Part shown: one piece after another, positions 38,882 through 41,023 of the stretch
Numbering within the stretch: the first letter of the stretch is position 1
Layout of the letters: every line of letters starts with the position of its first letter
Assembly: GCF_003790525.1 (NCBI RefSeq)
Contig: NZ_CP033635.1
Direction: 5' to 3' (one strand)
Length of the DNA stretch: 64,000 nucleotides
Source of the DNA: Escherichia coli
Lineage (GTDB): Bacteria > Pseudomonadota > Gammaproteobacteria > Enterobacterales > Enterobacteriaceae
Translations under genes and position numbers: made by a program
The notes under the pieces: generated by a model
Seen by the model: only the letters and a program-made list of their open reading frames with translations
The model's database searches: none
Told to the model about the DNA's origin: nothing

Positions 38882-39586
38882 GTGTTAATGATCATAAAAA
38901 AAAGCGGTGGTCGCTGGCAGCTAAGCCTGCTGGTGAGCGTGGTAATCAGTGCCTTTTTTCTCAACACAGCTTACGCCTGGCAACAAGAATATATCGTTGA
39001 TACGCAACCCGGACATTCCACAGAGCGTTACACCTGGGATAGCGATCATCAACCTGATTACAACGATATTTTGTCGCAACGTATTCAAAGTAGCCAAAGG
39101 GCGCTGGGACTGGAAGTCAATCTGGCGGAAGAAACCCCTGTGGATGTCACCAGTAGTATGAGTATGGGGTGGAATTTTCCTTTATATCAACAGGTTACAA
39201 CCGGTCCGGTCGCGGCATTACATTACGATGGCACAACCACCTCGATGTATAACGAGTTTGGCGACAGTACTACCACGCTGACCGATCCGTTATGGCATGC
39301 CAGCGTGAGTACTTTAGGCTGGCGTGTTGACTCCCGGCTTGGCGATCTCCGACCCTGGGCGCAAATCAGCTATAACCAGCAATTTGGCGAGAATATCTGG
39401 AAGGCGCAATCAGGCCTGAGCCGGATGACGGCGACAAACCAGAACGGCAACTGGCTGGATGTCACCGTAGGCGCTGATATGTTGCTCAATCAAAATATTG
39501 CTGCCTATGCGGCGCTATCTCAGGCAGAAAATACCACTAACAATAGCGACTATCTGTATACGATGGGGGTTAGTGCCAGATTTTAA
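38882..39586 (+). CDS. yhjY: outer-membrane autotransporter beta-domain-like protein
   Basis: 234 aa with signal peptide and C-terminal aromatic residue (…GVSARF). Confidence 0.75.
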   Translation: MLMIIKKSGGRWQLSLLVSVVISAFFLNTAYAWQQEYIVDTQPGHSTERYTWDSDHQPDYNDILSQRIQSSQRALGLEVNLAEETPVDVTSSMSMGWNFPLYQQVTTGPVAALHYDGTTTSMYNEFGDSTTTLTDPLWHASVSTLGWRVDSRLGDLRPWAQISYNQQFGENIWKAQSGLSRMTATNQNGNWLDVTVGADMLLNQNIAAYAALSQAENTTNNSDYLYTMGVSARF

Positions 39587-39680
39587 CGTTATAGATACAA
39601 TTGAAACCCATAAATAACAACTAATGTGGCGATAGTGGGGACTAACTTACTAAATAATAAATTTGGCGAATAATTGTCGA

Positions 39681-39731
39681 GTCATTCATTCCTGAACTAA
39701 TGCATTTCATTCCGTTCTGATGGCATTTCAT
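39681..39731 (+). promoter_or_regulatory. yhjX promoter direct repeats (YpdB-type response-regulator binding site)
   Basis: TGCATTTCAT (39701..39710), 11 bp spacer, GGCATTTCAT (39722..39731), plus a degenerate third copy GTCATTCATT at 39681; about 85 bp upstream of the yhjX ATG. Confidence 0.7.
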
Positions 39732-39814
39732 GCCGTTTTTCCCCAGGCATAAAGCGCACTTCGTTATGGTTGTCAGCAGAGATTTTTCCTTTTTATTACT
39801 GCAGGAATACTGCC

Positions 39815-41023
39815 ATGACACCTTCAAATTATCAGCGTACTCGCTGGCTGACACTCATCGGTACTATCATTACCCAGTTTGCTCTGGGGTCGGTTTATAC
39901 CTGGAGTCTGTTTAACGGTGCGCTTTCTGCCAAGCTGGGGGCTCCTGTAAGCCAGGTTGCTTTCTCTTTCGGCTTGTTAAGTCTGGGGCTGGCAATTTCA
40001 TCTTCTGTTGCGGGCAAATTGCAGGAACGTTTTGGTGTTAAACGCGTCACTATGGCTTCCGGCATTTTGCTGGGATTAGGTTTCTTCCTGACAGCACATT
40101 CCAACAACCTGATGATGCTGTGGTTAAGCGCCGGTGTGTTGGTTGGTCTGGCGGATGGTGCGGGTTACCTGTTGACGCTCTCTAACTGCGTGAAGTGGTT
40201 TCCGGAGCGTAAGGGACTTATCTCTGCTTTTGCTATCGGTTCTTATGGTCTGGGCAGCCTGGGTTTTAAATTTATCGACACGCACCTGCTCGAAACGGTG
40301 GGTCTGGAAAAAACCTTTGTTATTTGGGGCGCGATTGTACTGGTGATGATTGTCTTTGGCGCAACGTTAATGAAAGATGCGCCGAAGCAGGAAGTGAAAA
40401 CCAGCAATGGTGTGGTGGAGAAGGACTACACCCTGGCAGAGTCGATGCGTAAACCGCAGTACTGGATGTTAGCGGTTATGTTCCTGACTGCGTGCATGAG
40501 TGGTCTGTATGTGATTGGTGTAGCGAAAGATATCGCTCAAAGTCTGGCGCATCTTGATGCAATTTCCGCAGCCAATGCTGTGACGGTTATTTCCATCGCC
40601 AACCTTTCTGGTCGTCTGGTGCTGGGCATTCTGTCTGACAAAATCGCCCGTATCCGTGTTATCACCATTGGTCAGGTGATATCGCTGGTGGGTATGGCGG
40701 CCCTGCTGTTTGCACCATTGAATGCAGTGACGTTCTTTGCAGCGATTGCCTGCGTGGCGTTTAACTTTGGCGGCACTATCACGGTGTTCCCGTCACTGGT
40801 CAGTGAGTTCTTCGGCCTCAATAACCTGGCGAAAAACTACGGTGTGATTTATCTCGGTTTCGGTATCGGCAGCATTTGTGGGTCGATTATCGCCTCACTG
40901 TTTGGCGGCTTCTATGTGACTTTCTACGTCATTTTTGCCCTGCTGATTCTGTCTCTGGCGCTTTCAACGACCATTCGCCAGCCAGAGCAGAAAGTATTGC
41001 GTGAAGCGCATGGCTCCCTTTAA
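39815..41023 (+). CDS. yhjX: MFS transporter (oxalate/formate antiporter family), pyruvate-inducible
   Basis: ATG at 39815 gives 402 aa starting MTPSNYQRTRWLTLIGT. Confidence 0.9.
   Translation: MTPSNYQRTRWLTLIGTIITQFALGSVYTWSLFNGALSAKLGAPVSQVAFSFGLLSLGLAISSSVAGKLQERFGVKRVTMASGILLGLGFFLTAHSNNLMMLWLSAGVLVGLADGAGYLLTLSNCVKWFPERKGLISAFAIGSYGLGSLGFKFIDTHLLETVGLEKTFVIWGAIVLVMIVFGATLMKDAPKQEVKTSNGVVEKDYTLAESMRKPQYWMLAVMFLTACMSGLYVIGVAKDIAQSLAHLDAISAANAVTVISIANLSGRLVLGILSDKIARIRVITIGQVISLVGMAALLFAPLNAVTFFAAIACVAFNFGGTITVFPSLVSEFFGLNNLAKNYGVIYLGFGIGSICGSIIASLFGGFYVTFYVIFALLILSLALSTTIRQPEQKVLREAHGSL

Follow-up and report, generated by a model that had tools for sequence, protein, structure and literature searches.

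A conserved third repeat next to the YpdB sites of the yhjX promoter, probably an additional operator element

How many binding sites make up the operator from which the response regulator YpdB activates yhjX? In Escherichia coli K-12 this operator, located in the promoter PyhjX, was published as two 10-mers (Fried et al. 2013, as relayed in PMC4847170), whereas the conserved unit described here consists of three 12-13-mers. The published model, in which YpdB fills site A and then site B and is rapidly cleared, leading to pulsed expression, rests on two sites, and the oligonucleotide behind it was tethered at the end next to the third repeat. In the stretch of E. coli DNA analysed here (the window, 64 kb long) we find a known system that probably has an unrecognised third operator element. 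If this is true, the third site would alter the stoichiometry to be expected, the way in which cooperativity is modelled and how pyruvate biosensors are designed from these promoters.

The repeats lie in the yhjY-yhjX intergenic region, directly 5' of yhjX, where the window reads cgAGTCATTCATTCCtgaactaaTGCATTTCATTCCgttctgatGGCATTTCATGCCgttttt. A 1-kb stretch around them is 100% identical in SMS-3-5 and several other E. coli chromosomes. Of 5426 complete E. coli genomes, 5422 contain it, with yhjX annotated under the match in 5419. The coding sequence (39815-41023, plus strand) specifies 402 amino acids with a Pfam match to MFS transporters, and both the annotation and this family match bear out the initial annotation, which had named the downstream gene as yhjX. 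The RefSeq name of the YhjX protein encoded here is 'L-lactate MFS transporter'. Upstream, yhjY (38882-39586) has an autotransporter beta-domain according to Pfam. The regulator genes ypdA-ypdB are not within the 64-kb window. A terminator-like hairpin was not found between yhjY and yhjX in the window, so that read-through from yhjY is possible, and no Rfam family was found in 39450-39950. Synteny of yhjY and yhjX holds in 74 of 80 species, and in some of them (e.g. Yokenella) the third repeat is within ~10 bp of the yhjY stop codon. Over the 1 kb, identity to the window is only 90-95% in 3632 of the 5422 genomes, and a preprint that includes a mutational scan of PyhjX (bioRxiv 2021.07.18.452581) counts the intergenic region, which has up to 27 SNPs, as one of the more variable promoters of E. 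coli. Compared with K-12, the window has about 13 differing positions in the DNA 5' of the repeats (39587-39680) and two in the 55-bp repeat block.

Two of the three repeats are the published sites. Site A, the high-affinity YpdB site, is found at 39701-39713 on the plus strand (TGCATTTCAT at 39701-39710, followed by a conserved TCC), and site B, the low-affinity site, at 39722-39734 on the same strand (GGCATTTCAT at 39722-39731, followed by a conserved GCC). They are 21 bp apart from start to start, with 11 bp between the 10-mers, and a repeat finder reports the pair as a 15-nt direct repeat with 14 of 15 positions identical. Behr et al. (2016, PMC4847170) describe the target of YpdB (also PyrR) in PyhjX as a direct repeat of GGCATTTCAT, to which it binds, and name the two copies A and B. 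The K-12 oligonucleotide that they used for surface plasmon resonance (SPR), CGCGTCATTCATTCCTGAACTAAGGCATTTCATTCCGTTCTGATGGCATTTCATGCCG, is identical to the window at 56 of 58 bases. The initial annotation had taken TGCATTTCAT and GGCATTTCAT, 11 bp apart, for the YpdB site, with the proviso that a reference might give a different motif; the motif stated in PMC4847170 is that very direct repeat, and the claim holds. Since the published K-12 sites match the window, the interpretation of A and B is both correct and already known: locus, gene, the A/B pair and the 11-bp spacer are those of the K-12 operator (Fried et al. 2013, to the extent that it is reported in PMC4847170). The feature is the known YpdB operator, and the pair as such adds nothing new.

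The two bases at which the window differs from the K-12 oligonucleotide are 39680 (A for C), which is the base preceding GTCATTCAT in the third repeat, and 39701 (T for G), which is the first base of site A. Exact 61-mer matches in complete E. coli genomes number 1626 for the window allele and 3581 for the K-12 allele. The T with which A begins in the window is a common natural allele at a freely varying position: among 81 sequences (described below), the published 10-mer starts with G in 52 and with T in 29 at site A, and with T in 44 and G in 30 at site B. The three bases 3' of the published 10-mer, (T/G)CC, are fixed across the species compared. Conservation thus redefines the YpdB motif, with its first G free and the following (T/G)CC fixed. 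Strain FDAARGOS_1283 (L002:446) has an A instead of G as the first base of site B (AGCATTTCAT), again at the position that is not conserved. In E. coli DX6 (NZ_CP126345.1, L003:449-853), an IS1 element is inserted inside site B, with GGCATTTC followed by the IS1 end GGTAATGACTCC; the insertion separates the operator from whatever is downstream.

The third repeat, called U here, is located upstream of A at 39680-39692 on the plus strand (AGTCATTCATTCC), with the conserved core GTCATTCATTCC at 39681-39692. It starts exactly 21 bp upstream of A, and the two have the contiguous stretch TTCATTCC in common. The initial annotation had described a triplet at a spacing of roughly 21 bp, the third copy being a degenerate 10-mer, GTCATTCATT, at 39681-39690, which is 20 bp before A. 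The copy exists, but its register has to be corrected, as it is in phase from 39680; read in that way, the spacing of the triplet is exactly 21/21 bp. The 8-mer TTCAT[G/T]CC that the three repeats have in common begins at 39685, 39706 and 39727. It occurs 10 times in the whole 64-kb window against 6.7 expected, a total that is not unusual, whereas the spaced pattern TTCATKCC-N13-TTCATKCC has two matches in the window, both of them here, against 0.00 expected from 100 shuffles.

The case for U comes from its conservation. Promoters were compared for 80 species-level genome representatives that carry yhjX, from about 25 enterobacterial genera (Escherichia, Citrobacter, Enterobacter, Klebsiella, Kosakonia, Buttiauxella, Cedecea, Kluyvera, Lelliottia and others), giving 81 sequences together with the window. 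Information content was computed over 80 unique sequences, with positions relative to the start of A. The upstream flank (-60 to -22) has 0.28 bits per column and a mean pairwise identity of 34%, and its highest 12-column window does not exceed 0.39 bits. The U 12-mer (-20 to -9) then reaches 1.72 bits per column and 92% identity, next to 1.87 bits and 99% for the A 12-mer and 1.73 bits and 93% for the B 12-mer; the spacers between U and A and between A and B have 0.52 and 0.63 bits per column. When the sequences are anchored on A and B only, nG(T/C)C(A/G)TTCAT(T)CC appears exactly 21 bp 5' of A in essentially every genus, and the DNA upstream of U is unrelated between genera. Without any anchoring, a search for TCAT[TGA]C[CT] finds a triple at 21/21 bp in 80 of the 81 upstream regions, compared with 0.18 per shuffled region. 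The G, the TTCAT and the C of U are invariant in all 81 sequences, and the same columns are invariant in an independent MAFFT alignment of 26 genera. The conserved block has a sharp start at 39681 and runs into the core promoter. No fourth direct copy was found at -42 or +42, and the columns there are not conserved.

The word degenerate therefore does not apply to U. At its fourth position it has C in 79 of 81 sequences, whereas both published sites always have A there (81 of 81), and its third base is T or C; a C kept in this way shows U to be a selected variant of its own, not a decayed copy of A. It also belongs to yhjX and not to the gene upstream, as U is present in all six loci that lack yhjY upstream and its conservation far exceeds that of the YhjY protein, for which identity outside Escherichia is 43-75%. 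The conserved unit is thus not a pair of 10-mers; it comprises three 12-13-bp repeats, nG(C/T)(A/C)nTTCAT(T/G)CC, placed exactly 21 bp apart, and since 21 bp correspond to two helical turns, all three are on one face of the DNA. Judged by these alignments, U is conserved as strictly as the published sites across enteric bacteria, which makes it probable that the operator has three parts and not two. The suggestion in the initial annotation that a third copy could extend the operator gains support from this: U is conserved like B in about 25 genera and lies within the footprint-sized fragment. What is added to the known system is a third repeat that is real, in phase and selected as strongly as B, in a layout that is the same at the BtsR operator.

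Published binding data bear directly on what U may do. According to Behr et al. (PMC4847170), phosphorylated YpdB binds as monomers, first to A with high affinity (1.2 nM) and then, cooperatively, to the low-affinity site B (about ten-fold weaker); in K-12, filling of A and B leads to activation of yhjX on external pyruvate. The SPR oligonucleotide is described as resembling all DNase I-protected nucleotides (PMC4847170, after Fried et al. 2013, insofar as the footprint is reported there). It extends from 3 nt 5' of U to 1 nt past the GCC of B, so that all three copies are inside. An oligonucleotide mutated in A only, which still carries U and B, was not bound by YpdB-D53E, and one mutated in B only, which still carries U and A, showed a single binding event of 23 nM, compared with 1.2 nM for the high-affinity class of the wild type; on the wild type, binding fell into two kinetic classes and not three (PMC4847170). 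It follows from the two mutants that U is not bound alone and does not substitute for B in vitro. A caveat is that the oligonucleotide was tethered at its 5' end through biotin-streptavidin, with U only 7 bp away. Nucleotides flanking the sites are reported to affect expression in vivo (PMC4847170).

On balance we favour, with moderate confidence, the reading that U is a weak third YpdB contact that is filled cooperatively after A. Such a contact would be intrinsically weak and occupied only once A is bound. Either the array would grow to three protomers, or an alternative U+A register would keep YpdB at the promoter; RNA polymerase would be contacted from B, which is next to a poor -35 region. 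U agrees with A and B in core, phase and orientation, and the footprint-sized fragment reaches exactly from U to B. Against this, U differs systematically from A and B at its third and fourth bases, and it is therefore possible that U is read differently, or by something else.

The main alternative is an operator of two sites. YpdB may have A and B only, as published, and U may be kept as the site of another protein or as a structural element of the DNA (for bending or phasing) that is needed for activation but not directly recognised by YpdB. The SPR results agree with this, as U and B together are unbound, U and A together give one event and the wild type gives two classes, and so does the fact that U holds its own conserved variant, GTCATTCAT, and not GCATTTCAT. 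We regard it as unlikely, although it has to be taken seriously: an unrelated factor is hard to fit with an invariant TTCAT(T)CC, a 21-bp period and an orientation that U, A and B share in 80 of 81 sequences. Moreover, the literature accessible to search names no further protein that regulates transcription of yhjX, and one study treats yhjX as regulated solely by activation (bioRxiv 2021.07.18.452581). A further argument against it is that the operator of the paralogous regulator BtsR has the same third repeat, written in BtsR's own motif.

BtsR (YehT) is part of a paralogous pyruvate-sensing LytS/LytTR system, and its published site in the btsT (yjiY) promoter consists of two ACC[G/A]CT[C/T]A repeats separated by 13 bp. 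The published PyjiY oligonucleotide (PMC4847170) in fact contains three ACCRCTYA-like 8-mers, GCCGCTCA, ACCGCTTA and ACCACTCA, which are 20 and 21 bp apart, and the published BtsR site corresponds to the last two of them. The btsT promoters of 11 Enterobacterales genera (E. coli, Salmonella, Klebsiella, Cronobacter, Rahnella, Erwinia, Dickeya, Pectobacterium, Xenorhabdus, Proteus and Serratia; L084:2606-2654 and, for L085-L094, upstream of position 601) were obtained by protein search and contig look-ups; a btsT search of viral contigs found nothing. Three ACCRCTYA-like repeats at 20-21 bp are present in all 11, scoring 21-24 of 24 positions, where the best of 300 shuffles scores 19. The two operators are alike in having a third upstream repeat, and they differ in motif and in the state of that repeat: at btsT it is the perfect consensus ACCGCTTA in Salmonella, Klebsiella and Erwinia, and at yhjX it is a fixed variant. 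With three repeats in 11 of 11 btsT promoters, a three-repeat operator seems to be the rule for both paralogues, as far as promoter comparison can tell. The broader proposal is that three in-phase repeats are the conserved operator architecture of both YpdB/yhjX and BtsR/btsT, which would accommodate a third protomer or alternative dimer registers sharing the central site and would leave the two-site 'AB-BA' pulse model incomplete; we put this forward tentatively, at somewhat under an even chance. Searchable full texts present the YpdB and BtsR sites as pairs and contain no description of a third repeat, and the primary papers might mention one. Together, the conservation of U and the BtsR layout make mutating or deleting the third repeat a well-motivated experiment.

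How unusual would such an operator be among LytTR regulators? The canonical sites, such as those of AgrA, ComE, PlnC/D, VirR and FsrA, are pairs of 9-11-nt repeats with 11-13 nt between them. The yhjX operator resembles these in repeat length, 21-bp period, direct orientation and a position just 5' of a weak -35 region; as a pair it has 10-13-nt repeats, an 8-11-nt spacer and a period of 21 bp, with B ending 30 bp before the putative -10 element. It is unlike the canonical pairs in that a third in-phase repeat is conserved. LytTR operators of three direct repeats have been described for RcoM-1 from Paraburkholderia xenovorans and CoxC from Afipia carboxidovorans, with spacers of 12-13 bp and a period of 20-21 bp, and CoxC needs all three repeats for efficient binding (PMC11347149). 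At the sequence level yhjX is similar, with three evenly spaced direct repeats of one motif. The regulators themselves differ, as RcoM-1 and CoxC are one-component gas sensors, CoxC being a repressor that overlaps the -35 box, whereas YpdB is a two-component response regulator and an activator, with an unrelated motif. These precedents mean that the three-repeat LytTR operator is a kind already known, even though pairs are called canonical.

Much weaker than the two-site alternative is the idea that U is a chance resemblance or the decaying, functionless relic of a duplication. In phase, U matches the published 10-mer GGCATTTCAT at only 6 of 10 positions, which alone is not significant and would suit such an origin, but the idea is very improbable in view of a core that is (nearly) invariant over about 25 genera beside flanks with identity down to 34%, and of the zero chance expectation of the in-phase 8-mer pattern in the window. 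A chance origin of U is excluded by the conservation data, and recent horizontal copies are excluded by the diverged flanks of the 80 loci.

The weakest proposal is that the minus-strand open reading frame across the repeats (39642-39854, 70 aa) encodes a real small protein with GMKC repeats, which we consider practically out of the question: an open frame of 70 codons does exist, and its translation contains ...NGMKCHQNGMKCISSGMND... with NGMKC twice and SGMN once, but it overlaps the start and promoter of yhjX, has no Pfam match, varies from 21 to 100 open codons in the same frame among species, and owes its peptide repeat automatically to a DNA period of 21 bp, which is seven codons. It is a mechanical frame and not a gene, and the initial annotation was right to call it spurious.

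A conserved T-tract and C-run, GTTTTTCCCCA, at 39735-39745 (plus strand) lies between site B and the core promoter and spans most of the expected -35 region. Columns +35 to +38 (TTTT) and +41 to +43 (CCC) are 84-100% conserved, and no TTGACA-like hexamer is found in 39735-39745. A sigma-70 consensus scan gave no site at the yhjX promoter, its sole match being within the end of yhjY, and for this reason the -10 element and the start were located by conservation. In the 26-genus alignment, TATGGT at 39765-39770 (plus strand), of which TAT is invariant or nearly so, is the putative -10, and a conserved CAG at 39777-39779 (plus strand) marks the likely transcription start region. These features suggest an activator-dependent promoter. 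If +1 is taken to be near 39778, B, A and U would be centred at about -49.5, -70.5 and -91.5.

Between B and the putative -10, and thus overlapping the core-promoter spacer, there is also a degenerate inverted copy of the repeat at 39746-39757 on the minus strand, GGCATAAAGCGC, which has three mismatches in the window to GGCATGAAATGC, the reverse complement of GCATTTCATGCC. Of 81 species compared at this one offset, 9 have a perfect inverted 12-mer (Yokenella, Pseudescherichia, Kosakonia, Phytobacter and others) and 38 have one with three or fewer mismatches, and it is absent in Enterobacter, Lelliottia and Klebsiella. That it might serve as a shut-off site is speculation. Further downstream, the Shine-Dalgarno sequence of yhjX, AGGA at 39803-39806 on the plus strand, is covered by a near-palindrome, TATTACTGCAGGAATA, at 39794-39809, with GGA within the palindrome; CsrA has been reported to act on yhjX (PMC11508082).
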